Source: a bacterium
Lineage (GTDB): Bacteria > Patescibacteriota > JABMPQ01 > JAQVVF01
Assembly: GCA_030611905.1 (NCBI GenBank)
Contig: JAUWOX010000001.1
Coordinates: 1-31,709, forward strand
DNA: 31,709 nt
Direction of reading: 5' to 3'
Shown here: positions 2,809-16,439 of the stretch, piece after piece
Position numbering within the stretch: the stretch's first letter is position 1
How the letters are laid out: the number at the start of each line of letters is the position of its first letter
The notes under the pieces: model-generated
What the model saw: only the letters and a program-made list of their open reading frames with translations
What the model was told of the DNA's origin: nothing
The model's database searches: none
Translations under genes and position numbers: made by a program

Positions 2809-3606
2809 TTAAAATTGCTTTCTTTCTGGCCGAGGTTTTTTTTGTTGTTTGAAGTCGGGGGTTGGCATGGTGAGCTTTAATCCGTGATCTGTCATTTCCG
2901 CCTTTTTTGCAGCTAGTATTTTGAGAACAAAGCCAGCCTTAAACAATCTTTCTATATTACCAAGAGCATACCTAGAAATGTGTTTTCTTTTTTCTTGTCT
3001 TATATCTTTCAAGGCTTCTTTGAATTCTTGGATGAAAAAATTACTGGCTCTGATTGGAATTTCGGTATCTTTAATTACTTCTGGTGCGTAAATTTTCAGA
3101 TAATGGAGATTATAATAAGTAATTATTTTGTGTTCTCCGATTGGGATACCCCAATCCCTTGGATTATCTGACAGTTTTTCTATATTTTCTCTTAATTCTT
3201 GTTTTTCTTCTTTGCTCATCGATTTTAGTCTTTCCGTTATGTCCTGTCTGAAAATTAAATCTGAATTCTCGGCTTCATGAATTTCTTCGTCAGTTAATTC
3301 GAAATCAAGAAATCTATCAGACCAGATCTTTAATAAACCTAGTAATTCTAAGTATTTCTTTCTAACAGTCCTTTCAGATGGGGGACTATAGGGACGATGG
3401 TCAACAACTGAATCTGATAAAGCATACTCATCTAAACATCCTTCAACACTATTCAATGTTAAATCTTGACATATAATTTCCCAGTCTCTTTTGGTAACTT
3501 CTTCTTCTGGATCAAAAACAAGTACTTCAGGTTCCTCTGTTTCTAAAGATAGATCCTGTAATTTTAATTCATCTGGTTTTTTTTCGAAATGTTTTCGTAT
3601 TCCCAT
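2809..3606 (-). CDS. Hypothetical protein, paralog P1 of the MGIRKHFEKKP...KKPRPERKxF family (core type A)
   Basis: 265 aa. Shares its N-terminal 22-26 aa and C-terminal motif with 3615-4421, 4430-5185 and 7755-8603. The core aligns by eye with 4430-5185. Confidence 0.85.
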   Translation of the reverse strand: MGIRKHFEKKPDELKLQDLSLETEEPEVLVFDPEEEVTKRDWEIICQDLTLNSVEGCLDEYALSDSVVDHRPYSPPSERTVRKKYLELLGLLKIWSDRFLDFELTDEEIHEAENSDLIFRQDITERLKSMSKEEKQELRENIEKLSDNPRDWGIPIGEHKIITYYNLHYLKIYAPEVIKDTEIPIRASNFFIQEFKEALKDIRQEKRKHISRYALGNIERLFKAGFVLKILAAKKAEMTDHGLKLTMPTPDFKQQKKPRPERKQF

Positions 3607-3635
3607 GAGATTAGTTAAAAGTTTTTTCTTTCTGG
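3533..3635. repeat. 103-bp direct repeat, copy 1 (end of P2, 8-nt spacer, start of P1)
   Basis: Identical to 4348-4450 apart from a GT/TG swap (101/103 nt), offset 815 nt. Confidence 0.9.
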
Positions 3636-4421
3636 TCTTGGTTTTTTTGGTTGTTTGAGGTCAAGTTCTGACATTACTAATTTGTATCCTTGATTTGTGA
3701 ATTCTATTCTCTTTGCAGTTAATATACTGAGAGTGAGCGCATCATAGCTATACTGTATCCAATCAATAAGTTTGGCTCTATTCATTTCTTCTTTTTTGTT
3801 TTCAAAATCTTTTTCAGTTAGACCTAATTCTTCGAAAAGTTCTGGTGAAAATAATCTTATTTTTGCAGCAAAACGGCAATATCTTCCGTGATGATCTTTT
3901 TTGTTAAATAAAGCTCTTTTAATTTTGTCAATAATTTCGTTATTTTTTAGGTCTAATTCTTTGGATTCTTTTGGAAAAAGAGTTTGCAAACTAAAAGCCG
4001 TTGTAACATATAGTTCTAAATCTGTGGATTTGTTAAACTTTAACTCTTGTTTAAGTTTTTCAAAATCTTCTTGGCCAAAATTTATTTGATCTGGAAAAAG
4101 ATTTTTTAGAATCATCATATGGTAGTGCGTTTGGAAAGTATTCTTTTGCTCTTTAATTCCTTTTAACGCTTGTTGATCAAGTAGAAAAAAATTTGATTTG
4201 TCTGGAAAAATAATTTTGAAATTGTGTGCTAGTCTAGCAAACTGTCCCCACCATCCTTTGTCATGATATTCTTTGAGTCTTTGCAATATTCTTTCCCAAT
4301 CTTGTTCAATAATCTCTTCTTCTGGATTAAAAACGAGTGCTTTAGGCTCCTCTGTTTCTAAAGATAGATCCTGTAATTTTAATTCATCTGGTTTTTTTTC
4401 GAAATGTTTTCTGATTCCCAT
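3615..4421 (-). CDS. Hypothetical protein, paralog P2 (core type B, degenerate helical repeats)
   Basis: 268 aa with the same termini. The core has degenerate W..F...A..(M/F)K.(L/I).P.K repeats like those of 7755-8603. Confidence 0.85.
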   Translation of the reverse strand: MGIRKHFEKKPDELKLQDLSLETEEPKALVFNPEEEIIEQDWERILQRLKEYHDKGWWGQFARLAHNFKIIFPDKSNFFLLDQQALKGIKEQKNTFQTHYHMMILKNLFPDQINFGQEDFEKLKQELKFNKSTDLELYVTTAFSLQTLFPKESKELDLKNNEIIDKIKRALFNKKDHHGRYCRFAAKIRLFSPELFEELGLTEKDFENKKEEMNRAKLIDWIQYSYDALTLSILTAKRIEFTNQGYKLVMSELDLKQPKKPRPERKNF

Positions 4422-4450
4422 GAGATTAGTTAAAAGTTTTTTCTTTCTGG
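4348..4450. repeat. 103-bp direct repeat, copy 2 (end of P3, 8-nt spacer, start of P2)
   Basis: See copy 1. A more diverged partial copy (about 6 mismatches in 65 nt) lies at 5121-5185. Confidence 0.9.
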
Positions 4451-5185
4451 CCGTGGCTTTTTTGTCTGTTTAAAATCCTCTTTTTTCATTGTTATCTTCA
4501 ATCCTTGATTAGTCACTTTTACTTCGTCAGCAGTAAGGATTTTGAGAGTAAGAATAGCTTTAAACAAGTCATCAATATTTGAAATATGTGACCATTCGGG
4601 CTGACGCATTCTTTCTAATATTGTTTTTATCTCTTCTGTAATAAATTGCTTAATTGAATCAGGCATTTCTTGGTCTTTGAATAGATTAGAATCAACAATC
4701 TTCAGATAATACAAGTCCTTTAATATATACATCTTTGGATTGGCCTGAAACATTTTTATAGTTTTGTCTCTTAATTCCCCTCTCTCCTGCGGACTCATTG
4801 AACGCATTTGTTCTATTCTATGTGCTTTTAAAATTAAATCTGGATCATTAATTCGTCGATTTTCTTCATCAGACAATTCGAAATCTTCAAATCTGTCAAC
4901 TGAGGCAATTCTTAATAAACTTAGCAAGCTCAAATATTCTTGGGCGACATACTCCTCAGATGGAGCTTCGTAATCCATGTGATCGGCTGCCGCAACCATC
5001 TGTTCGTAATTTTCCAAATAGCGTTTAACATTTTCTTTGGTTAACTCTTGGCGTATAATATCCCAGCTTTGTTCGGTAATTTCTTCCACGCCAAATTCAG
5101 GTTTCTTGTCCGACACATGTTCTAAAGACAAGTCCTGCAATTTTAATTCGTCTGGTTTTTTTTCGAAGTGTTTTCGTATTCCCAT
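4430..5185 (-). CDS. Hypothetical protein, paralog P3 (core type A)
   Basis: 251 aa with the same termini. Starts 5 nt after the rmuC stop. Confidence 0.85.
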   Translation of the reverse strand: MGIRKHFEKKPDELKLQDLSLEHVSDKKPEFGVEEITEQSWDIIRQELTKENVKRYLENYEQMVAAADHMDYEAPSEEYVAQEYLSLLSLLRIASVDRFEDFELSDEENRRINDPDLILKAHRIEQMRSMSPQERGELRDKTIKMFQANPKMYILKDLYYLKIVDSNLFKDQEMPDSIKQFITEEIKTILERMRQPEWSHISNIDDLFKAILTLKILTADEVKVTNQGLKITMKKEDFKQTKKPRPERKNF

Positions 5186-5190
5186 AAATT

Positions 5191-6384
5191 TTATTGATAA
5201 ATATTTTCTTGTTGCATTGGCACTTCTTTTTGAACTGGCATTGCCTTAGCGGTAATTTTTTCAGATACAGGCGTTGTCTCGCCATAATCGATTTCTGCTA
5301 ATTTGTCATTAAATTTTCCTAGCCTTTTTTCTGACTCATTATATTTTTTGGTGGCATTGTTGAGATGACTACCAAGAACTTTAAATTCATCGTCGAATTT
5401 ACCAAAGTCACCTTGCAAGCGCTTAAGATTATGCAAGATCTCTTTGGCGCTCTCTTCAATTTTCATTCCCTTGAGTCCGAGGAGTATAGCTTGAACAAAG
5501 ACATAGAGAGTGTTAGGAGAGACTGGAAAAACTTTTTTAGCATAAGAAAAATTGATAAGAGGATTGTCATCTTGATCTCGGATAATTGTTTCATAATAAA
5601 CATTTTCTGCTGGAATATACATTAAGGCATAATCTATTGTTCCTTCGTCTGGCAAAATGTATTTTTGAGCAATAGCGCTAATGTGTTTTTTAACATCTGT
5701 TTTAAATTGTTTTTTGAATTTCTTTTTTTCTTCCTTATTTTTAGCCGCGCTGATCATCTTTTGAAAATTTTCTAAAGGAAATTTTGCATCAATGGGAACC
5801 AACATATTGTCTTTAAGCTTGATGACAGCGTCAACTTTTTCTCCAGAACGAAAGGTGTACTGTTCTGCAAAATGTTCTTTGGAAAAAGTTTGTGATAATA
5901 AATCGCCCAGAAATAATTCACCAAAAGCGCCGCGCAGTTTTGGAGCTTTAAGAATTTCCTGCAACCCACTAATATCCTTACCTACTTCAAATATTTTCTC
6001 ATTAGCTTCCTGCATTTGAGCCAAGCGAGTTTGTACAGAGCTAACTACTTTCGCAGCATTGTCTAGGCGAGAGCCAACTGTTGACTGTGATTTTTGAATA
6101 AGTTCACTATTTTCTTTGAGGCGCTGATTGAATTGATTGGTTTGCGCATTCATTTGAGCAAGCATGCTCTTGGTGACTTGATTCATATTTTCCGAAATAG
6201 TTTTGCTGGTTTGATTTAAATTCTGTCCAACGTGTTGGTTGAGATTGTCGATTCGCTCATGTAAAATTTTATCTTCTTTATTTTCAGGATTGGCTAGTTT
6301 TTGATTGATTTTTATTAGATAAAAAGCTAAAAAACCACATATTCCTGCTAAAATGACGGTTATGATTACTAAGAATGTTAACAT
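5191..6384 (-). CDS. rmuC: DNA recombination protein RmuC
   Basis: N-terminal TM anchor, coiled coil, then RGAFGELFL, EQYTF, VDAVIKL, PIDAKFPLENF, GTIDYALMYIPAENVY and VSPNTL, which are RmuC-family motifs. Confidence 0.92.
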   Translation of the reverse strand: MLTFLVIITVILAGICGFLAFYLIKINQKLANPENKEDKILHERIDNLNQHVGQNLNQTSKTISENMNQVTKSMLAQMNAQTNQFNQRLKENSELIQKSQSTVGSRLDNAAKVVSSVQTRLAQMQEANEKIFEVGKDISGLQEILKAPKLRGAFGELFLGDLLSQTFSKEHFAEQYTFRSGEKVDAVIKLKDNMLVPIDAKFPLENFQKMISAAKNKEEKKKFKKQFKTDVKKHISAIAQKYILPDEGTIDYALMYIPAENVYYETIIRDQDDNPLINFSYAKKVFPVSPNTLYVFVQAILLGLKGMKIEESAKEILHNLKRLQGDFGKFDDEFKVLGSHLNNATKKYNESEKRLGKFNDKLAEIDYGETTPVSEKITAKAMPVQKEVPMQQENIYQ

Positions 6385-6525
6385 TTATTTTGATTATATT
6401 TATAGAGTATAATTTATTTTAGCAGATATTTAATGTAATGGAAAGTTTGCTATTATTTTAAATTTTATTTATAATATGTATATTACTAGTTTAATAATCT
6501 ATCAGCTACTAACTACTAACTAATC

Positions 6526-6624
6526 ATGCAATTACCTGAAAAATTTTTATTAGGGTTAACTATACTGTGCATAATATTAATTTTTACTCTGATTTATGTA
6601 ACTAGACTCTGGCTCAAATGTTAG
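6526..6624 (+). CDS. Possible 32-aa single-TM peptide (MQLPEKFLLGLTILCIILIFTLIYVTRLWLKC)
   Basis: Translated by hand. Hydrophobic stretch; overlaps the start of the next small ORF. Confidence 0.3.
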   Translation: MQLPEKFLLGLTILCIILIFTLIYVTRLWLKC

Positions 6625-6725
6625 AAGAATTAAAAATTTTAAGACTTTATGTTATATTGGTAGTAATTTTATCACTAATTTTTTATGTTGCCTTGCCCTT
6701 ATTGAAGAGATATTACGGAAGTTAA
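6618..6725 (+). CDS. Possible 35-aa single-TM peptide (MLEELKILRLYVILVVILSLIFYVALPLLKRYYGS)
   Basis: Translated by hand. The ATG overlaps the end of the previous ORF (ATGTTAG); TM segment followed by a basic tail. Confidence 0.3.
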   Translation: MLEELKILRLYVILVVILSLIFYVALPLLKRYYGS

Positions 6726-6792
6726 TTTCTTATTAAAATTCAATGAGTCGTGAATATCGAAATTCAATTGGCTTAAAAACGCTATAATCGTT

Positions 6793-6831
6793 AAATAAAC
6801 GGCTATTATCGACGAAAGTAGCCGTTTATTT
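6793..6831. terminator. Perfect 13-bp hairpin, probable terminator
   Basis: aaataaacggcta (6793-6805) pairs with tagccgtttattt (6819-6831). Confidence 0.55.
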
Positions 6832-6962
6832 TACCTTAAATAAGCCATTTGCTTTATTTAAGCCCTGCCTTTGCCGGCAGGCAAGCAAAATAATTTCATG
6901 ATTTACAAAGGTTGAGCTTGTTTTTTTTATAGTTTAATATATAATATAAGAGTAATTATTGG

Positions 6963-7036
6963 CGCGGGGTAGAGCAGTCTGGAAGCTCGTCAGGCTCATA
7001 ACCTGAAGGTCGGCGGTTCAAATCCGCCCCCCGCAA
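6963..7036 (+). tRNA. tRNA-fMet (CAT), initiator
   Basis: CGCGGGG...CCCCGCA-A acceptor with C1:A72 mismatch, anticodon loop CTCATAA, T-loop TTCAAAT. CCA not encoded. Confidence 0.95.
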
Positions 7037-7177
7037 TTTTAAAAATTCCAAATTACAAGATACAAGTACCAAACAAATTATAAATTACAATAATTAAATT
7101 TCAAACACGCGAATTTGAGATTTATAATTTGAAATTTGTTTGTAATTTGAGTTTTGTAATTTGGAATTTTTAAAGGG
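7037..7177. repeat. Heptamer-built (NNCAAAT-type) imperfect inverted repeat filling the inter-tRNA spacer
   Basis: 7038-7058 tttaaaaattccaaattacaa is the exact reverse complement of 7154-7174. Confidence 0.8.
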
Positions 7178-7251
7178 GGCAGGGTAGCTCAGCTGGTTAG
7201 AGCACCACACTCATAAAGTGGCGGTCGACGGTTCGAATCCGTCCCCTGCTA
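7178..7251 (+). tRNA. tRNA-Met (CAT), probably elongator (Ile2 not excluded)
   Basis: GGCAGGG/CCCTGCT acceptor with G2:C71 and C3:G70, D-arm GCTC...GAGC, loop CTCATAA, T-arm GACGG-TTCGAAT-CCGTC. Confidence 0.9.
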
Positions 7252-7267
7252 TATCATAAAACAAATT

Positions 7268-7344
7268 GGGGGCGTAGCTTAGTGGCTTAAAGCGCCTGCC
7301 TGTCACGCAGGAGACCGCCGGTTCAAATCCGGTCGTCCCCGCCA
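7268..7344 (+). tRNA. tRNA-Asp (GTC)
   Basis: GGGGGCG/CGTCCCC acceptor, anticodon arm CCTGC-CTGTCAC-GCAGG, G73, encoded CCA. Confidence 0.96.
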
Positions 7345-7365
7345 ATTGAACGAATTTTGAAGAAG

Positions 7366-7392
7366 AGCCGTTTTGAAGAACGGTTTTTTTTT
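7366..7392 (+). terminator. Intrinsic terminator after the tRNA cluster
   Basis: agccgtt-ttgaag-aacggtt followed by a T tract. Confidence 0.75.
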
Positions 7393-7700
7393 GTTTTTAT
7401 AAGTAGTTTCTTGTCTTCTAAAGTAGCTTTCGAGCCAAACATTAAAGAGAAAATGATTCTCTTTTCCTCAGGTTATTGATTCTTATGGTAAAAAGAATAT
7501 GGAAGATTCTGTTATTCTAACTATGCCAAAAGATGAATTTATGAAATATGACTGGGAGGGACTTAAATACGAACCTGTTTATAGTCAAATGGAAACATCT
7601 TGTTCATATTATTATATTCATCCCGCAGTAAAGAAGAATCTAAAATATGATAAATTATATTTATCATTATAGCCTATAGTGAGTAAGGGGGTGGGGGTAT

Positions 7701-7732
7701 AAAAAAGCAGAGCGTTATAGCTCTGTTTTTTT
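7701..7732. terminator. Bidirectional intrinsic terminator
   Basis: A6-gcagagc-gttata-gctctgt-T6, between converging units. Confidence 0.75.
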
Positions 7733-7754
7733 ATTTAATGGTTTATTAGTTAAA

Positions 7755-8603
7755 CTAAAAGTTTTTTCTTTCCGGCCGTGGCTTTTTTTCTGATTTGAAA
7801 GATTCTGGAGGAAACATAGTGATTTCTAGGCCCTGATCGGTTATTTCTACTTTGTCGGCGGCCAGGATTTTGAGATTCATGGCCAGCGTGGCAAAACTCC
7901 ACCCTTCTTTTTGTTTTCGCCATACTTCTAATTCCTGTTTCATCCCCTGCCAGGCTTGATCATCTATTTCTAATTCCGCTGATTTGTTAGGTCGAAGGAT
8001 TTTCATACGCATGGCTTGAAGGGCAAACCGCCACCAATTTCCATTTCGGTGTTGTTCTGCTTGCCATTTTATTCTCTGCCAGGCTCTTTCATCAATATTC
8101 AATTCAGAAAATTTATCAGGCTGTATAATTTTCATGGACACAGCTAGGTTGGCAAAGTGCCACCAATTCCTATTACGATCTTGTTCTAATTCTTGCTTCA
8201 TTTCTTGCCAAGCTTGATCATTAATGTCTAAATCAGAAAATTTATCAGGCTGTATAATTTTCATATACATGACTTGGCTAGCAAAATCCAACCATTTTTT
8301 ATCTTCTCTGTCTTGTTCTGATGCCAGCTTTATTCCTTTCCAAGCTTGGTCGTCAACGTCCAGTTCAGTAAATTTGTCGGGTCGAAGGAGCTTCATGCGC
8401 ATGGCCTGATATGCAAAATACTGCCACTCATCATTCGTCCGCATTTTTTCTAACTCCAGTTTCATTTTCTGCCAATCAGATTCTGTAATTTCTATTTCTG
8501 GATCAAATTTCAACTTTTCAGTCTCTTCCTGTTCCAAGCTCAAATCCTGAAGCTTGAGATCTTCATCGGTTGGTTTTTTTTCGAAATGTCTTCTAATTCC
8601 CAT
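7755..8603 (-). CDS. Hypothetical protein, paralog P4, with about five tandem 43-44-aa helical repeats
   Basis: 282 aa; starts MGIRRHFEKKP and ends KKPRPERKNF; repeat unit W..FA..A..MK.(L/I).P.K..(E/D)L.(I/V)....W..(M/I)K. Confidence 0.87.
   Translation of the reverse strand: MGIRRHFEKKPTDEDLKLQDLSLEQEETEKLKFDPEIEITESDWQKMKLELEKMRTNDEWQYFAYQAMRMKLLRPDKFTELDVDDQAWKGIKLASEQDREDKKWLDFASQVMYMKIIQPDKFSDLDINDQAWQEMKQELEQDRNRNWWHFANLAVSMKIIQPDKFSELNIDERAWQRIKWQAEQHRNGNWWRFALQAMRMKILRPNKSAELEIDDQAWQGMKQELEVWRKQKEGWSFATLAMNLKILAADKVEITDQGLEITMFPPESFKSEKKPRPERKNF
7860..8495 (-). repeat. Intragenic tandem repeat, unit 129-132 nt
   Basis: The exact 32-mer tcagaaaatttatcaggctgtataattttcat occurs at 8104 and 8233 (offset 129). 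ggtcgaagga...catggc occurs at 7990 and 8380 (offset 390, three units). Confidence 0.85.
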
Positions 8604-10659: not shown

Positions 10660-12084
10660 CTAAGTTAGTTGTTTATTTTTCAGCGCAATTTTCAAGAAAT
10701 TTTTGATAAATGGCTTACCATGATTATAATCAACATTTATTTCAGCATGAAATTGGATGCCGTAAATAAATCTTCGGGTGCTTTTTTGGACCTGAACATA
10801 ATCAGATTTGGCGATAACTTCAAATTCTTGGGCGGAATCAGCTACTGCCCAGGAATGAACTTCAGGGGCTGTGAAATTGTCTGAAATGCCTTGAAAAATT
10901 GGATCTTTTTTTAGGATTTTAATTTTGGTCATTCTGCTCTTTGGTTCCATAGCAGAAATATCAGACCAGCCCATGCTTCGAGCACGCGTATAACCATAGG
11001 CCATGGCCATAAATTGATGACCAGCGCAAATGCCTAGCATTGGAATATCAGTCTGTCTGATAATTTCAAATTCGCCATTGTGTTCAAACATGGGTAGATT
11101 TGGATAATCAGCATTATTGCCGCTAAGGATGACGGCAACTGGTTTTTTTTGTAATTTGTGAAGCATTTCTAGGCTGGCTTCATAATACGGAATAGTTAGG
11201 GTCTTTAATTTGGGGAACAGGCTTTCAACTTTTTTGGCTAGTTCGGTAAAAGTATAGCCATTATGTTCATTGCCAATAATTAGGACATAATCTTGATTTG
11301 GAGCCTGCGGAACTTTTGGCTGGCCAGGTGAATATAGAATAATTTCATTTATTTGCGCGGCGTAACCGAGAAAATCTTTTATAAATAGTCTGAAATATCT
11401 GGCCTTAACTGGTTTAAAGCTGATGATACTTCTAAACGTATTATTGTTTTTTGTTCTTGTTTCTGTAATATCTTTCCAGGTCGAGCCATTGGAACTTGAT
11501 TGCAGGACAAAGTCTTTGAGCCAGCCGTCTGGTTCATTAAAGTTTGATAAAATCCAGAGACGGCAAACTTCTTTTGAAGTGCCCAAGTCAAACTGTACCC
11601 AGTTTGTTTTTTCACCTGGCGGTGGACTTTGCCAGAATGTAATAAGCCCGGGATCATCATGATCAATAATATTTTTAACATTGTAGCCAGCCGATGCAGT
11701 GATATTTTTTATTGGAGTTCTAATTAAATTCATGAAATGATCGTCTGATTGGGTGTTTACAAAAAAGCGGGAAACTTCCCAGTCACTGTTGCCATTTGAT
11801 GTAATTGCTCTAGCGCGCCAAAAATATTGCGTGCTATCTTTTAAAGCGTCCTTTTTTTCTACTTTTTGACCAGTAACAAATTGACTGGTTTCTTTAATAT
11901 CTTTGTAAATAATCTTGTCAGAAGAATCAAAATCTTTGGATGTGTCTAATTGGATTTCGTATTTACAATCTTTGGGTCCGCCTTGGGAATTAAAAAAAGA
12001 TAATAAGGGCGTAGTTTGGGTAACAACAACGTCCCAGCTTGGATTGTTTTTTAAATTAGGGGGCGTGATTTCATGTCTTGGCAT
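10660..12084 (-). CDS. Fusion protein: Fn3/Ig-like domain + discoidin (F5/8 type C) domain + class I glutamine amidotransferase
   Basis: YEIQLDT...YFWRARA (Fn3-like); FWQS...WVQFDLG...SSNGSTW...ARYFRL (discoidin); VILSG, LGICAGHQ and GIQFHAE (intact Cys-His-Glu triad). Confidence 0.85.
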   Translation of the reverse strand: MPRHEITPPNLKNNPSWDVVVTQTTPLLSFFNSQGGPKDCKYEIQLDTSKDFDSSDKIIYKDIKETSQFVTGQKVEKKDALKDSTQYFWRARAITSNGNSDWEVSRFFVNTQSDDHFMNLIRTPIKNITASAGYNVKNIIDHDDPGLITFWQSPPPGEKTNWVQFDLGTSKEVCRLWILSNFNEPDGWLKDFVLQSSSNGSTWKDITETRTKNNNTFRSIISFKPVKARYFRLFIKDFLGYAAQINEIILYSPGQPKVPQAPNQDYVLIIGNEHNGYTFTELAKKVESLFPKLKTLTIPYYEASLEMLHKLQKKPVAVILSGNNADYPNLPMFEHNGEFEIIRQTDIPMLGICAGHQFMAMAYGYTRARSMGWSDISAMEPKSRMTKIKILKKDPIFQGISDNFTAPEVHSWAVADSAQEFEVIAKSDYVQVQKSTRRFIYGIQFHAEINVDYNHGKPFIKNFLKIALKNKQLT

Positions 12085-12226: not shown

Positions 12227-13642
12227 ATGACAAAAGTGAGTAAAACAGGTAAATTCTTGGGCGTATTTGCCTTGGCAATGATTAATGTATCTTTGATCTG
12301 TAGTTTGAGAGGACTCCCTACAATGGCAGAATATGGCCTTACTGTTGTTTTCTTTTTGCTGGTTTCAATTATTTTGTTTTTGATCCCGGTATCTCTAGTT
12401 TCAGCAGAACTGGCTACTGGCTGGCCAAAGCAAGGCGGTATTTATAGGTGGGTAAAAGAAGCTTTTGGAGAAAAATGGGGTTTTGCTGCTATTGTTTTGC
12501 AGTGGGTGCAAAATCTTGTTTTTTATCCAACAGCATTAGCTGCTACGGCCGCAGTTATTGCTTATATGTTTAATCCCGCTCTGGCCAGTAACAAATACTA
12601 TACATTAGCAGTTATTATTGTAGTTTATTGGCTGGCTCTTATTATAAACCTGCGTGGCATGAAGATTTCTGGAAAAATAACCAGCATCGGAACACTGCTG
12701 GGAATTATTTTTCCTGGAGTAATTTTGATTGTCTTGGGTATGGTCTGGGTTTTTTCTGGACAAGATTTGGCCATTCCTATTACCGCCAAAGGATTTATTC
12801 CCAATCTTCTAGACCTAGATAATTATATTCTTTTAACTGGCATGTTTTTGTTTTTTGCTGGCATGGAGGTATCTGGAGTACATGCGAAAGAAGTCAAAAA
12901 TCCGACCAAGGATTATCCAAAAGCAATTTTTTCTTCTGGTATTATAGTGGCGGGCATTTTTCTTTTGGGATCACTGGCAATTGCTCTTATCATTCCGGCT
13001 TCTGAAATTAGCTTGACTGCTGGTATTATGCAAACTTATACAGCTGTTTTAGATAAATTCAGCATAGGCTGGGTAGTGCCCCTTATTGCCATACTAGCTG
13101 CTCCGGGGATGATTGTTCAGGTTAGTTCATGGATTGCTGGCCCAAGTCGAGGACTTTTGGTAACAGCAGAACAGGGCGACTTGCCTCCTTTTTTTCATAA
13201 GATGAACAAAAATAATATGCCAGTCAATATCATGATTGTGCAGGGAGTCTTGGTTTCTATTATCTCTCTGATTTTTATTCTTATGCCATCAGTGAGTAGT
13301 TCGTTTTGGATATTAACTGCCTTGGCAGCGATATTATATTTGACTGTATACGTGATTATGTTTGCGGCTGCAATAAAGTTGAAATATAGCAAACCTAATG
13401 TACCGCGTCCCTATGCAGTGCCCGGAGGAAAAATTGGAATGTGGATTGTTGCTGGCATAGGAATCCTAGCTTGTCTATCTGCTATTTTCTTTGGCTTTTT
13501 CCCGCCTTCTCAGCTTTCGACAGGTGACATTGGACGATATGAAGGATTTTTGATAATAGGCTTTCTGGTTTTAGCCTCTATTCCTTTTGTTATTTATGCT
13601 TTTAAAAAAGATTCCTGGAAAAAGAAGATTAGAGTTGACTAA
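12227..13642 (+). CDS. APC-superfamily amino acid permease, GadC-like (Glu/GABA antiporter family)
   Basis: 471 aa, about 12 TM; LRGLP, VSAELAT, GGIYRWV, FAGME, GPSRGL and RPYAVPGG motifs. Confidence 0.85.
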   Translation: MTKVSKTGKFLGVFALAMINVSLICSLRGLPTMAEYGLTVVFFLLVSIILFLIPVSLVSAELATGWPKQGGIYRWVKEAFGEKWGFAAIVLQWVQNLVFYPTALAATAAVIAYMFNPALASNKYYTLAVIIVVYWLALIINLRGMKISGKITSIGTLLGIIFPGVILIVLGMVWVFSGQDLAIPITAKGFIPNLLDLDNYILLTGMFLFFAGMEVSGVHAKEVKNPTKDYPKAIFSSGIIVAGIFLLGSLAIALIIPASEISLTAGIMQTYTAVLDKFSIGWVVPLIAILAAPGMIVQVSSWIAGPSRGLLVTAEQGDLPPFFHKMNKNNMPVNIMIVQGVLVSIISLIFILMPSVSSSFWILTALAAILYLTVYVIMFAAAIKLKYSKPNVPRPYAVPGGKIGMWIVAGIGILACLSAIFFGFFPPSQLSTGDIGRYEGFLIIGFLVLASIPFVIYAFKKDSWKKKIRVD

Positions 13643-13726
13643 ATTGAAAAAAATTAAAGGTGTTTAAGTCTATTTTAAAGACAGACCAACATGGCCTTGA
13701 ATTAATTTATAATTAACAAAAAATAT

Positions 13727-14523: not shown

Positions 14524-15195
14524 TTATTCTAATTCATTATTCTCTTTTTTTTTGAATAATTTTTTAGAAATATTTATCGCAGGGAAACTCTGCCAGTTGA
14601 ACGCGTACGAGAGCATTCTAATTATAAATATTAGAGCTATTCCTGCGATTGCCGCGATTTGGGCATTGACATCTGCGTACATGGCCAAGCCAATAAAAAG
14701 TACAATTCCTGCAAGCGAGGCTGTAATATAATATTGGCCGGGTTTCAAAAGCAGAGGCTCGCTTTTGGTGAGAATATCGCGCAGGAAACCACCGCTAACT
14801 GCGCCAACCATGCCAACTAAGACTGCTGCCAAGATATTTAAATTATTATTTAATGCCATTTGCGCTGCAATGATTCCAAATATCCCTAGGCCCAAAGCGT
14901 CAATAATTATGAAGATTAAAGTGATCTTTTTAATGTAAAAAATGAATAAAGGCGTGATTATTGCTGCTAATATGATGGCTACCAAATATTGCCAATCTTC
15001 AATCATTATTGGTATTTGTGCTAAAAAAACACCGTCCCTAATAATCGCTCCACTGGCACCGGTGATAAATGCCAAAACAAAGACTCCAGAAATGTCGTAT
15101 TTTTTTTCAGTAGCAAGTATTGCTCCTGTTATTGCCAGTAAAAATACTGCGACTACTTGAAGCATTAATGGTAATTCAAATTGGCCTGATATCAT
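14524..15195 (-). CDS. TRIC cation channel family (UPF0126/YadS-like) membrane protein
   Basis: Duplicated GAILA...D..G...GG..RD / DALGLG...GGFLRD motifs, about seven TM. Confidence 0.88.
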   Translation of the reverse strand: MISGQFELPLMLQVVAVFLLAITGAILATEKKYDISGVFVLAFITGASGAIIRDGVFLAQIPIMIEDWQYLVAIILAAIITPLFIFYIKKITLIFIIIDALGLGIFGIIAAQMALNNNLNILAAVLVGMVGAVSGGFLRDILTKSEPLLLKPGQYYITASLAGIVLFIGLAMYADVNAQIAAIAGIALIFIIRMLSYAFNWQSFPAINISKKLFKKKENNELE

Positions 15196-15239
15196 ATTTT
15201 TAATTTTATTTTTTAGATTTCAATTTTTGTAATTTAGAG

Positions 15240-16439
15240 CTAGCCAGCCAGAAGGAAATATATTAGTGCTATCGCAACAAGCAGTGTCATCATTAAAAAA
15301 ACGATTAGGGTCCCTTTTTTCTTTTTATCTTTGGAATGAAATTGACTTAGGTTCATCCCATATATAGCGGCTACAAAGGATAGTAGGAATAATACTGTAG
15401 AAAAAATGGTTAAGAATTTTAAAATATGGTTAGTATCGTGACTGAAAATCGAAAGATAAAAATTCACCATGTCTGAAGCGATGGTCCAAAAAATTTCAAT
15501 GGTGCTGTTAAGATATTCTATATTTTCATATGTTGCGTGAAAATAATTCTTTACTTCAGATGAGACTAACGGATAATCATAGGTAGACAAATTATATACT
15601 ACATCGCGTATTGGCCAGATTACCTGGCGCCCAACTGTTAATTCGCGTTTTACAATATAAATACCTTTGAGTATGTCCTCATTGGGTGAATCCATTAGTT
15701 GTTTTTCTAAAACATCAATTTGCTCGTTAACAATTTCTAGTGCTGGAAAATAACTATCAACGACGGTATCAATTAGAACAAACGCTAAATAATCACTGCC
15801 CATTTTAGACATAAGCCCTCTTTTCTTGGCCAGTTGATCATAAACTAAATCAAAGTCTTTGTCACTATTTGCTTGAAAAGAGATAACATAATTATTGCCC
15901 CAAACCAAGTTTATTTGTTCTAATTGCATTGCATCTACACTAGAACTTTCATCGATCATTTTCAAAGACACAAAAATATAGTTATCATTTTCCCGAATAT
16001 CTGGACGCTTGGTTGTATTCGCAATATCTGCTTGTTCTATAGGCGACAGGTCAAAAGCTGTACCAAATTCCTTGATAATTTTTTCATCATGAACGCCACT
16101 GACATCAATCCAAGTAACAAAACCATCTTCAACCAGTTCTCTGGCAGCAGCCGGTGTGTCCACTTCTGTCTCTTCAAAAGAATTTTCATTGTATTTGACA
16201 ACTCTGATTGTAACTGGTTCGGTTTTTTCTTTTCCAATATATCGGACCTCTCCCGGTGGGCCTGAGAGATCTTCTTCTTGAGGCAGCTCAATGTCAGACA
16301 AATCATTAGTTGACCCCAACTGCATATCGGCGAAATAAGAATCTTGGGCCTTAGCTATCTTATTTGAGGAAATGACAAAAACTAAACCAACCACTGCTAA
16401 TACAGTAAATACCATTTGAATAATTTTTTTTGTTTTCAT
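15240..16439 (-). CDS. corA: CorA-family Mg2+/Co2+ channel with an N-terminal signal-peptide-like extension
   Basis: GPPGEVRYIG, WIDVSG, DYLAFVLID..VDSYF, IWPIRD and YGMN signature, two C-terminal TM helices. Confidence 0.88.
   Translation of the reverse strand: MKTKKIIQMVFTVLAVVGLVFVISSNKIAKAQDSYFADMQLGSTNDLSDIELPQEEDLSGPPGEVRYIGKEKTEPVTIRVVKYNENSFEETEVDTPAAARELVEDGFVTWIDVSGVHDEKIIKEFGTAFDLSPIEQADIANTTKRPDIRENDNYIFVSLKMIDESSSVDAMQLEQINLVWGNNYVISFQANSDKDFDLVYDQLAKKRGLMSKMGSDYLAFVLIDTVVDSYFPALEIVNEQIDVLEKQLMDSPNEDILKGIYIVKRELTVGRQVIWPIRDVVYNLSTYDYPLVSSEVKNYFHATYENIEYLNSTIEIFWTIASDMVNFYLSIFSHDTNHILKFLTIFSTVLFLLSFVAAIYGMNLSQFHSKDKKKKGTLIVFLMMTLLVAIALIYFLLAG

Follow-up and report, generated by a model that had tools for sequence, protein, structure and literature searches.

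The contig JAUWOX010000001.1 of GenBank assembly GCA_030611905.1, from a bacterium of the Patescibacteriota, was analysed over its full 31,709 nucleotides (hereafter the window), and four of its open reading frames (ORFs), here called P1 to P4, encode paralogs with nearly the same ends and very different cores. We consider it probable that they represent an unnamed protein family of about 280 aa, specific to the candidate phyla radiation (CPR), in which the ends of the paralogs serve as docking tags for a machine made of a MoxR-like ATPase and a VWA protein, and the cores form a repertoire that recognises targets. This reading builds on the expansion of the family in the genome, on its repeat architecture, on the pattern of selection along the proteins, and on a recurrent neighbourhood in related loci, where the ATPase and the family share a tag that co-varies between them.

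The four proteins have a common start, MGIRKHFEKKP..LKLQDLSLE, and a common end, L.IL.A..T..G..M...KKPRPERKxF, with divergent cores between the two. A first-pass annotation, made from the DNA letters alone, had noticed these four ORFs with conserved ends and what looked like swapped cores, and both ORF calls and alignment bear it out at the following positions (tags and modules of P1 to P3 are from alignment):

2809..3606, minus strand: P1, ORF of 265 aa; family profile E 1e-113; divergent "type A" core
3615..4421, minus strand: P2, ORF of 268 aa; five eroded 43-aa repeats (repeat profile at residues 58, 103, 142, 185 and 220)
4430..5185, minus strand: P3, ORF of 251 aa; "type A" core, 49% identical to P1
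7755..8603, minus strand: P4, ORF of 282 aa; canonical family member with a family-profile match
3541..3606, minus strand: N-terminal tag of P1, residues 1-22
2812..2931, minus strand: C-terminal module of P1, last 40 residues (last repeat helix, hairpin and tail KKPRPERKQF; supported also by a structure model)
4356..4421, minus strand: N-terminal tag of P2, residues 1-22
3618..3737, minus strand: C-terminal module of P2, last 40 residues
5120..5185, minus strand: N-terminal tag of P3, residues 1-22
4433..4552, minus strand: C-terminal module of P3, last 40 residues

The genes for P3, P2 and P1 lie head to tail in the same orientation with 8-nt spacers. The first 22 residues are identical in P1, P2 and P3, the identity between P1 and P2 extends to residue 26, and P4 carries a variant with K5R and a two-residue insertion; alignment agrees with the first description on all three points. 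The motif LKLQDLSLE occurs in all four proteins (251-282 aa), and at the other end the invariant columns are, in P1 numbering, L228, I230, L231, A233, T239, G242, M247, K253, K256, K257, P258, R259, P260, E261, R262, K263 and F265. In terms of the family as a whole, all four show the N-tag pattern h-x-h-x-D-L-x-h-E, the C-terminal KILAA helix, a beta-hairpin and an hPxx[KR]xF-COOH tail. P1 and P3 can be aligned from end to end, and each of them is 33-34% identical to P2 and P4, with the identity concentrated in the ends. The layout of charge is also common to the four proteins: residues 1-12 carry +2 or +3 and the following 18 carry -2 to -6, an acidic or neutral core comes next, and the final 12 carry +3 or +4. 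None of the four has a transmembrane segment or a signal peptide (the top 19-aa Kyte-Doolittle mean is at most 1.02), as had been noticed at first sight.

The family is greatly expanded in this genome. A family profile search of the assembly (1.11 Mb in 170 contigs, 76% complete, with a shortest contig of 2.5 kb; the window is its longest contig, C148) found 57 ORF fragments on 28 of the 170 contigs, with at least 41 distinct N-termini and 40 distinct C-termini, amounting to 34 kb of family DNA or 3.1% of the assembly. The arrays are always co-oriented, and the family breaks up the assembly, since 24 of the 28 carrier contigs stop within one of its genes. In public data the family has 1177 cluster representatives at E ≤ 1e-3, nearly all of 265-295 aa, a recurrence that lies far outside chance. 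The motifs are repeated in the genome in at least 41 paralogs, and Pfam, NCBIfam, PHROGs and PADLOC gave zero family matches with the P1 to P4 proteins. Six family copies (on contigs C15, C50, C133, C140, C141 and C155) have a single in-frame TAA or TAG, and may be pseudogenes or assembly chimeras between paralogs.

To describe how the ends are conserved, we compared 24 full-length paralogs of this genome with Nei-Gojobori estimates. Paralogs differ in amino acids by 0.20 over the N tag, by 0.70 over the core and by 0.35 over the C module, and the share of identical residues written with different codons is 0.38, 0.45 and 0.50, respectively. In the same order, the mean nonsynonymous difference (pN) is 0.13, 0.47 and 0.24 and the mean synonymous difference (pS) is 0.64, 0.68 and 0.78, so that pS is saturated everywhere, the ends included. 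Because pN is low while pS is saturated at the ends, the tags are kept by purifying selection on the peptide and not by homogenisation of the DNA. The closest pairs give omega values of 0.03-0.28 for the tags and of 0.3-0.5 for the core, with dS in the cores below that in the tags.

For the most part, ends and cores have a common history, as Mantel tests show a correlation of core protein distance with C-end DNA distance (r = 0.43, p = 0.001) and, less clearly, with N-end DNA distance (r = 0.30, p = 0.057). There is one clear exception, a pair of junctions between adjacent genes that is the product of local conversion or unequal crossover:

3533..3635, minus strand: junction copy 1, from the final 7 codons of P2 across the 8-nt spacer CTAATCTC into P1 (first 74 nt); it matches 4348-4450 at 101 of 103 nt
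4348..4450, minus strand: junction copy 2, from the final 7 codons of P3 across the spacer into P2 (first 74 nt)

The first-pass annotation had concluded from the N-terminal identity of P1 and P2 that ends and cores have different histories, and that one case is real, but it is a locally homogenised junction; overall, the correlated distances amount to duplication and divergence, an outcome that the annotation had itself listed as refuting its idea. Its further suggestion, that cores are exchanged through recombination at the ends, fails as a general mechanism, given the synonymous saturation of the ends and the correlation of C-end with core distances. Tandem family genes lie 8 to 109 nt apart, with spacer sequences that are unrelated, and a single conserved DNA element at the junctions was rejected for this reason. 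Some array spacers contain a GC-rich hairpin (CTCCTGCCTGCCGGCAGGCAGG) or long repeats built from CTAAT/ATTAG (C30 after position 5100, C94, C15, C36 and C144). Diversification by a diversity-generating retroelement was also considered and dropped, as the reverse transcriptase PF00078 was not found in the (incomplete) assembly.

The conserved ends belong to a repeat protein. The consensus of the repeat is W..F...A...KIL.P.....L..D..W over 43-44 aa, and a hidden Markov model (HMM) built from canonical units was run on P1 to P4. It resolves P4 best, into a half repeat at the N-terminus (residues 36-57), four full repeats of 43 aa with independent E-values (i-E) of about 1e-25, and a modified terminal repeat (235-275). 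P2 has five eroded repeats at the same spacing as in P4; P1 and P3 give a clear score for the terminal repeat alone (i-E 3e-4 in P1 and 2e-6 in P3), and the remaining traces are not significant. At the C-terminus, L.IL.A corresponds to the opening helix of the last repeat, and at the N-terminus FDPE.EIT..DW makes up the half repeat. Hence, the ends that had been taken for invariant pieces are indeed conserved, but they are not separate modules, since they are parts of the repeat architecture. The two core types proposed at first hold for P1 and P3, which align throughout, and for P4, in which repeats of about 43 aa are clear, with the qualification that the repeats of P2 are eroded. Within the repeat, buried positions are conserved and the others diverge fast. 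The parts of P4, combining the repeat HMM with helices assigned by DSSP on an AlphaFold2 model and with the confidence of that model (predicted local distance difference test, pLDDT), are as follows:

8523..8603, minus strand: N-terminal disordered tag, residues 1-27, MGIRRHFEKKPTDEDLKLQDLSLEQEE; pLDDT below 50; nearly invariant in at least 41 paralogs
7911..8498, minus strand: repeat core, with the half repeat at 36-57 and full repeats at 59-100, 103-144, 146-187 and 189-231; repeat HMM i-E 1e-24 to 1e-26 per full unit
7818..7901, minus strand: modified terminal repeat helix (LKILAAD) and beta-hairpin (KVEITDQGLEITM), residues 235-262; conserved family-wide
7758..7817, minus strand: C-terminal disordered tag, residues 263-282, ending KKPRPERKNF; low pLDDT; family consensus hPxx[KR]xF-COOH

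The model of P4 (pLDDT 87.7, predicted template modelling score pTM 0.81, from an alignment of 20 sequences) is confidently all-alpha, with five units of about 44 aa, each of three helices (about 14, 7 and 16 residues), and a beta-hairpin at 251-262. Both tails are of low confidence (residues 1-27 and from about 263 to the C-terminus), with pLDDT below 50 at 1-27 and 268-272. The P4 model has no convincing match in the PDB. Foldseek gave a best E of 0.28 there, and against AFDB clusters it returned only three uncharacterised clusters, all of the same family (A0A2M7H280, A0A3A4JFM2 and A0A1G2JM39); no Pfam match to the known helical repeats (TPR, Sel1, HEAT, ankyrin) was found at E ≤ 1, the ESM Atlas look-alike search gave no usable match, and the top template modelling (TM) score in the Atlas fold search was 0.42. 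The top VIA-align matches of P4 are mostly alpha/alpha toroids, such as the alpha-domain of transcobalamin and intrinsic factor, the C3d thioester domain, the prenyltransferase beta subunit and terpene cyclases, with Z of 8-9.5 over about 200 aligned residues at 3.5-4.3 A. However, sequence identity to these is 6-11%, Foldseek is blank, and the Z values lie under the tool's stated noise for helical repeats (about 13), so that a closed toroid is no more than one possibility beside an open solenoid. Full-length paralogs form a ladder of lengths, 150, 194, 231-241 and about 282 aa (C30, C155, C144, C94, C36), with one 44-aa repeat per step and, therefore, in-register loss or gain of repeats. This ladder suggests an open solenoid and not an obligately closed ring.

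The model of P1 (pLDDT 83) is likewise predicted as all-alpha, with a beta-hairpin at 235-246, but superposes poorly on the family clusters (TM 0.31-0.44). Among 161 family proteins and the paralogs of this genome, and in an index of 5.8 billion proteins, the type A cores of P1 and P3 have no relatives except each other. By their ends, then, P1 and P3 belong to the family, and their core is strongly diverged and of uncertain arrangement.

The link to a machine comes from related CPR loci. In all nine with readable flanks, a gene for a MoxR-like AAA_5 ATPase (700-940 aa) is flanked by 2-23 family genes, and in six of the nine there is also a gene that joins a zincin domain (HExxH) to a VWA domain. 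The zincin-VWA gene was seen in Parcubacteria, and the pairing of ATPase and array also in Doudnabacteria and Daviesbacteria. The loci, with the C-terminal tails of the ATPase and of the family where both were compared, are listed below; "no zincin-VWA" refers to the examined stretch of the locus and not to the genome:

L038, Parcubacteria bin.624 (same as G015): 8 family ORFs; zincin-VWA; ATPase tail RPERK..., family tail RPERKELN
L058, JGI contig: 13 family ORFs; zincin-VWA; ATPase tail TPEARQF, family tail IPEAKQF
L070, Ca. Doudnabacteria: 12 family ORFs; no zincin-VWA; ATPase tail VPAAKQF, family tail LPEAKHF
L072, 399-kb contig: 5 family ORFs; zincin-VWA; ATPase tail MPIQRTF, family tail LPLVRKF
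L073, 723-kb groundwater contig: 12 family ORFs; no zincin-VWA; ATPase tail QPIPRSF, family tail LPEARRF
L074, GW2011-type Parcubacteria: 17 family ORFs; zincin-VWA; ATPase tail LPDQKQI, family tail MPEQKQF
L075, Ca. Daviesbacteria: 23 family ORFs; no zincin-VWA; ATPase tail IPESRKF, family tail LPEVRKF
L076, 886-kb contig: 9 family ORFs; zincin-VWA
L078, ENA contig, of the window's subfamily: 2 complete or partial family genes and a fragment; zincin-VWA, split in two ORFs

The ATPases of these loci are orthologous (43% identity over 655 aa) and have a 300-aa N-terminal extension. The zincin-VWA proteins are orthologous too, with an invariant HE[AS]GHH, a K/E-rich linker, and a VWA domain whose metal ion-dependent adhesion site (MIDAS) is intact (DxSGS, GGGT, LTDG). 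The C-terminus of the ATPase is the family's own hPxx[KR]xF tag, and it co-varies with the tags of the neighbouring family genes, the pairing of tails within their own locus being equalled or bettered in just 32 of 5040 permutations; among 77 ATPase homologs about half have Pxx[RK]xF at the end, and many of the rest a close variant. In one natural fusion, P0180 (a Logan contig, 1009 aa), the ATPase is continued by a complete family member at residues 715-1009 (E 6e-41); at the join the family N tag stands in place of the ATPase tail (…EAEFP-IQLNIKSLTLEEP…). The locus nearest to the window, L078, holds in order a MGIRKHFENKP...KKPRPERRQF gene with 71-91% nucleotide identity to the copies of this genome, the ATPase, the zincin-VWA gene and a MGIRRHFENKP family gene. 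A PF05635 gene sits there between the ATPase and zincin-VWA genes, and the latter is split into ORFs of 292 and 355 aa. In L073 a PemK toxin gene (13347-13673) and a Peptidase_M10 gene (14536-15423) lie just past the ATPase, in the position that zincin-VWA has elsewhere. A pattern scan of metagenomes for the ATPase returned two loci only, one of them already known.

The family is patchily distributed. It occurs in 3 of 40 relatives (13, 4 and 3 matches), all of the same order and of other families, and the three 97%-complete genomes from the same taxonomic family gave no match. Of 250 genomes of the phylum with a completeness of at least 90%, four contain it, and three of these hold single-copy relatives with the repeat core and without tags or hairpin, in genomes without the ATPase. 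These tail-less relatives (L079, G235:C3; L080, G227:C19; L081, G078:C2) cover HMM positions of about 35-263; their N-termini are E/K-rich, and they end directly behind the last KIL helix. With the fourth genome, G005, set aside, the tags travel with the ATPase/VWA machine. The ATPase was found in none of the 250 genomes, and its carriers among the 40 relatives are G014, G015 and G011 (the last with a distant homolog), at 79-87% completeness and in 80-160 contigs. Because arrays break assemblies and carriers were found only among the less complete genomes, the arrays probably bias genome catalogues against carriers, and the system is probably under-represented.

Taking MoxR-VWA pairs and the MoxR-vWA ternary conflict systems (compared below) as analogues, we infer a mechanism in which the tags would dock each paralog, as well as the ATPase itself, onto one receptor site of the ATPase/VWA machine. 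This receptor would likely be the ATPase ring or the VWA-zincin protein; alternatively, the tags might be processed (clipped) by the zincin domain. The variable surface of the repeats would face a different target in each paralog, and the family would supply interchangeable client or adaptor subunits to an ATP-driven remodelling or proteolytic machine, with conflict with phages or hosts as its most likely use. For this genome we predict that its own ATPase and VWA genes lie in the unassembled 24%, inside an array. More tentatively, and as a possibility that we think less likely than its opposite, this may be an undescribed CPR machine in which the MoxR-like ATPase and a zincin-VWA hub read a two-ended peptide address code, made up of a strand motif at the N-terminus and hPxx[KR]xF-COOH at the C-terminus, on the ATPase and on dozens of fast-diversifying helical-repeat receptors of a new fold, a germline-encoded recognition repertoire of up to 3% of a 1-Mb genome that would capture phage or host proteins and remodel or degrade them. 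For a host-dependent bacterium with a genome of about 1 Mb, devoting about 3% of the DNA to a single unnamed family suggests a function central to its way of life, for example phage defence or dealings with the host, and the link to AAA+ and VWA genes, together with the co-varying tag, turns an anonymous expansion of "hypothetical proteins" into a testable system.

Several observations weigh against the docking of tagged paralogs on such a machine. The loci behind the co-variation of the tails are few and phylogenetically non-independent. The glutamate of the tag is not universal (LPLVRKF in L072), which weakens a simple model of Glu bound at the MIDAS, and the ATPase tag of L076 is degenerate (YPQVVKT). 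The ATPase N-termini, PERL[IL]PxH[IL]GGE or F[MV]PxHFGRE, have only a partial likeness to the family N tags (NPDRINIHELTVEEPE, MGIRKHFEKKP). No ATPase was found in G005, a 97%-complete genome with two short tagged copies. In the window's own, 76%-complete assembly, ATPase and VWA genes of this type were not found by tblastn or with HMMs at E 0.01; the assembly is incomplete and broken at the arrays, yet these genes may truly have been lost. As to biological target and purpose, the reading is pure inference.

The first-pass annotation favoured a polymorphic toxin or secreted effector family with terminal export or chaperone signals, possibly delivered into a host. On such a view the paralogs are secreted or host-injected effectors with shuffled cores, and their basic tails are export signals, for example for a VirD4-like type IV coupling protein. 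It accounts for termini that are conserved and disordered in the absence of a Sec signal, for a basic C-tail of +3 or +4, and for fast-evolving tandem paralogs in a host-dependent lineage; a VirD4-like gene lies on a contig with two arrays, with the same synteny in G015. Moreover, the substrates of type IV secretion systems in Patescibacteria are unknown (PMC12102498). However, the VirD4-like gene (on C36, near the two arrays) is present in 41 of 41 relatives regardless of the family, which is ordinary conserved synteny; coupling proteins of this kind are ubiquitous in Patescibacteria and usually unlinked to virB4 (PMC12102498), and the coupling protein was dropped as a candidate tag receptor for want of specific support. 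The same tag is carried by a cytoplasmic AAA+ ATPase, the fold is a helical repeat, and Pfam, NCBIfam, PHROGs and PADLOC yielded no toxin or enzymatic domain above threshold. No immunity-like neighbour appeared in the window or in the examined loci, whose gene lists were read without a dedicated search, and the neighbours are housekeeping genes. The correlation of end with core distances and the synonymous saturation of the ends also speak against shuffling. We therefore consider effectors unlikely, and no specific link to secretion emerged. The termini do act like signals addressed to a common partner. Of the two functions first suggested for the ends, the chaperone side is favoured by an AAA+ ATPase that lies within arrays and bears the same co-varying tag, and the export side is unsupported.

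A second alternative, which we judge improbable, is that the paralogs are structural building blocks that co-assemble into a heteropolymeric scaffold or coat, for instance by adding the N-tag strand of one subunit to the C-terminal hairpin of the next, with the AAA+/VWA machine as assembly or disassembly chaperone and with core variation as drift or surface variation. The N tag does alternate like a strand (LKLQDLSLE, INIKDLSLE), the C module ends in an exposed beta-hairpin, and pairs of MoxR and VWA proteins are known to act as assembly chaperones; co-expression of many copies from the operon-like arrays (spacers of 8-109 nt) is also probable. Against such a lattice stand the extreme divergence of the cores, at 70% amino-acid difference, and the ladder of repeat numbers (150, 194, 238 and 282 aa), which would be odd for its subunits, and polymerisation alone does not explain the tag on the ATPase.

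It is also conceivable, though in our view quite unlikely, that in this genome the family is independent of an AAA+/VWA machine that has been lost, and that the tags serve some other partner, such as a protease, a chaperone or nucleic acid. This would fit the failure to find ATPase and VWA genes in the 1.11-Mb assembly, the tagged copies without ATPase in G005, and the housekeeping genes that neighbour the arrays here. However, strong purifying selection still acts on the tags of at least 41 copies, and the near relative of the same subfamily in L078 has both ATPase and VWA genes inside the array. Furthermore, ATPase genes of the clade occur cut off on contigs of about 2.3 kb, broken at the shared tag. 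An example is L077, where the ATPase ends in TKPERRSF and follows a family gene ending in ERRSF, and where the 2.3-kb contig starts and stops in that shared DNA; being shorter than the 2.5-kb minimum of the bin, it shows how such an ATPase gene would drop from it.

Finally, ordinary tandem duplicates or decaying repeats without a shared function, whose ends look alike through recent duplication or gene conversion, are hardly credible, for although one junction pair is identical at 101 of 103 nt and several copies have in-frame stops (C15, C50, C133, C140, C141 and C155), the saturated pS at the ends (0.64-0.78) with a pN of 0.13-0.24 already contradicts this explanation, and the tags persist across CPR lineages whose cores are 20-30% identical. 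Clamp-binding motifs, N-myristoylation signals and the targeting peptides of encapsulins and bacterial microcompartments were considered and dropped as well, for a mismatch in register or consensus residues.

The remaining features of the window around the four ORFs are the following:

5191-6384: RmuC-like gene, between P3 and P4
6963-7344, plus strand: tRNA cluster of two tRNA-Met and one tRNA-Asp, between the RmuC-like gene and P4
15240-16439: CorA gene

No ORF of at least 60 aa was found at 6385-7754, and a UvrD/AddB-like helicase gene lies downstream of P1. A search for constant neighbours of the arrays in this genome gave none; the neighbouring genes include aldolase, TIM, alanine racemase, DnaX, a Clp-like AAA protein, CorA and FtsX. 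One gene order, namely a VirD4-like coupling protein (837 or 829 aa, 65% identical), a protein of 150-159 aa, CorA and a family array, is common to this genome (L043 13177-17290) and G015 (L038 15715-20374). Small genes for four-helix bundles of PF05635 (23S_rRNA_IVP, bAvd-like) are scattered near arrays, in L043 (G000 contig C36) at 11181-11585 and 12762-13133 and in L078 at 3481-3852.

No description of this system was found in the searchable literature, where paralog expansions in Parcubacteria likewise yielded nothing of relevance, or in Pfam, NCBIfam, PHROGs and PADLOC, and its likeness to known systems is partial in each case. Two comparisons are analogies only. Like the F-box proteins of SCF ligases, the family combines a short docking element with a variable repeat domain in a large tandem family whose binding part evolves fast; unlike them, and with no homology between the two, it would dock by terminal peptides on an AAA+/VWA machine, and no ubiquitin-like chemistry is present here. 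Like the HbYX tails of proteasomal AAA+ ATPases, the family tail is a conserved extreme C-terminal tripeptide with an aromatic residue, used there, and perhaps here, for docking to a partner, but it reads [KR]-x-F-COOH in place of hydrophobic-Tyr-x, it is also present on the clients, and there is no proteasome. Closer are the pairs CbbQ-CbbO, NorQ-NorD, RavA-ViaA and BchI-BchD, in which an AAA_5-type ATPase works with a VWA adaptor that contains a MIDAS and binds a short client motif. Each of these has one defined client (Rubisco, NO reductase, Mg chelatase), in contrast to the dozens of divergent, commonly tagged clients proposed here, and the system described here differs further in the 300-aa N-terminal extension of its ATPase and in the zincin-like domain of its VWA protein.

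The nearest comparison is with the MoxR-vWA "ternary" conflict systems (Kaur, Burroughs, Iyer and Aravind 2020, eLife; PMC7159879), in which the third component is VMAP, iSTAND, FtsH or a beta-propeller, and some of which include a zincin peptidase that acts on proteins with a conserved C-terminal peptide. The same paper sets the CPR aside only in its test of association with multicellularity, and mentions Parcubacteria or Patescibacteria nowhere. A MoxR AAA+ gene, a vWA gene and a third component that diversifies fast stand together in both cases, with a patchy spread; this adjacency is true of the related loci and is not observable in the window's genome. The proposed logic is alike as well, in that the vWA protein would capture a peptide of the partner and the ATPase would remodel that partner. 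The third component here, however, is none of VMAP, iSTAND, FtsH or beta-propeller, but a helical-repeat protein in 5 to more than 40 copies as against one; the zincin is fused N-terminal to the vWA domain, to which no effector domain is fused; and the ATPase shares the terminal tag of its clients. Hence, with a multi-copy third component and an ATPase that carries the client tag, the system fits none of the four described ternary types.

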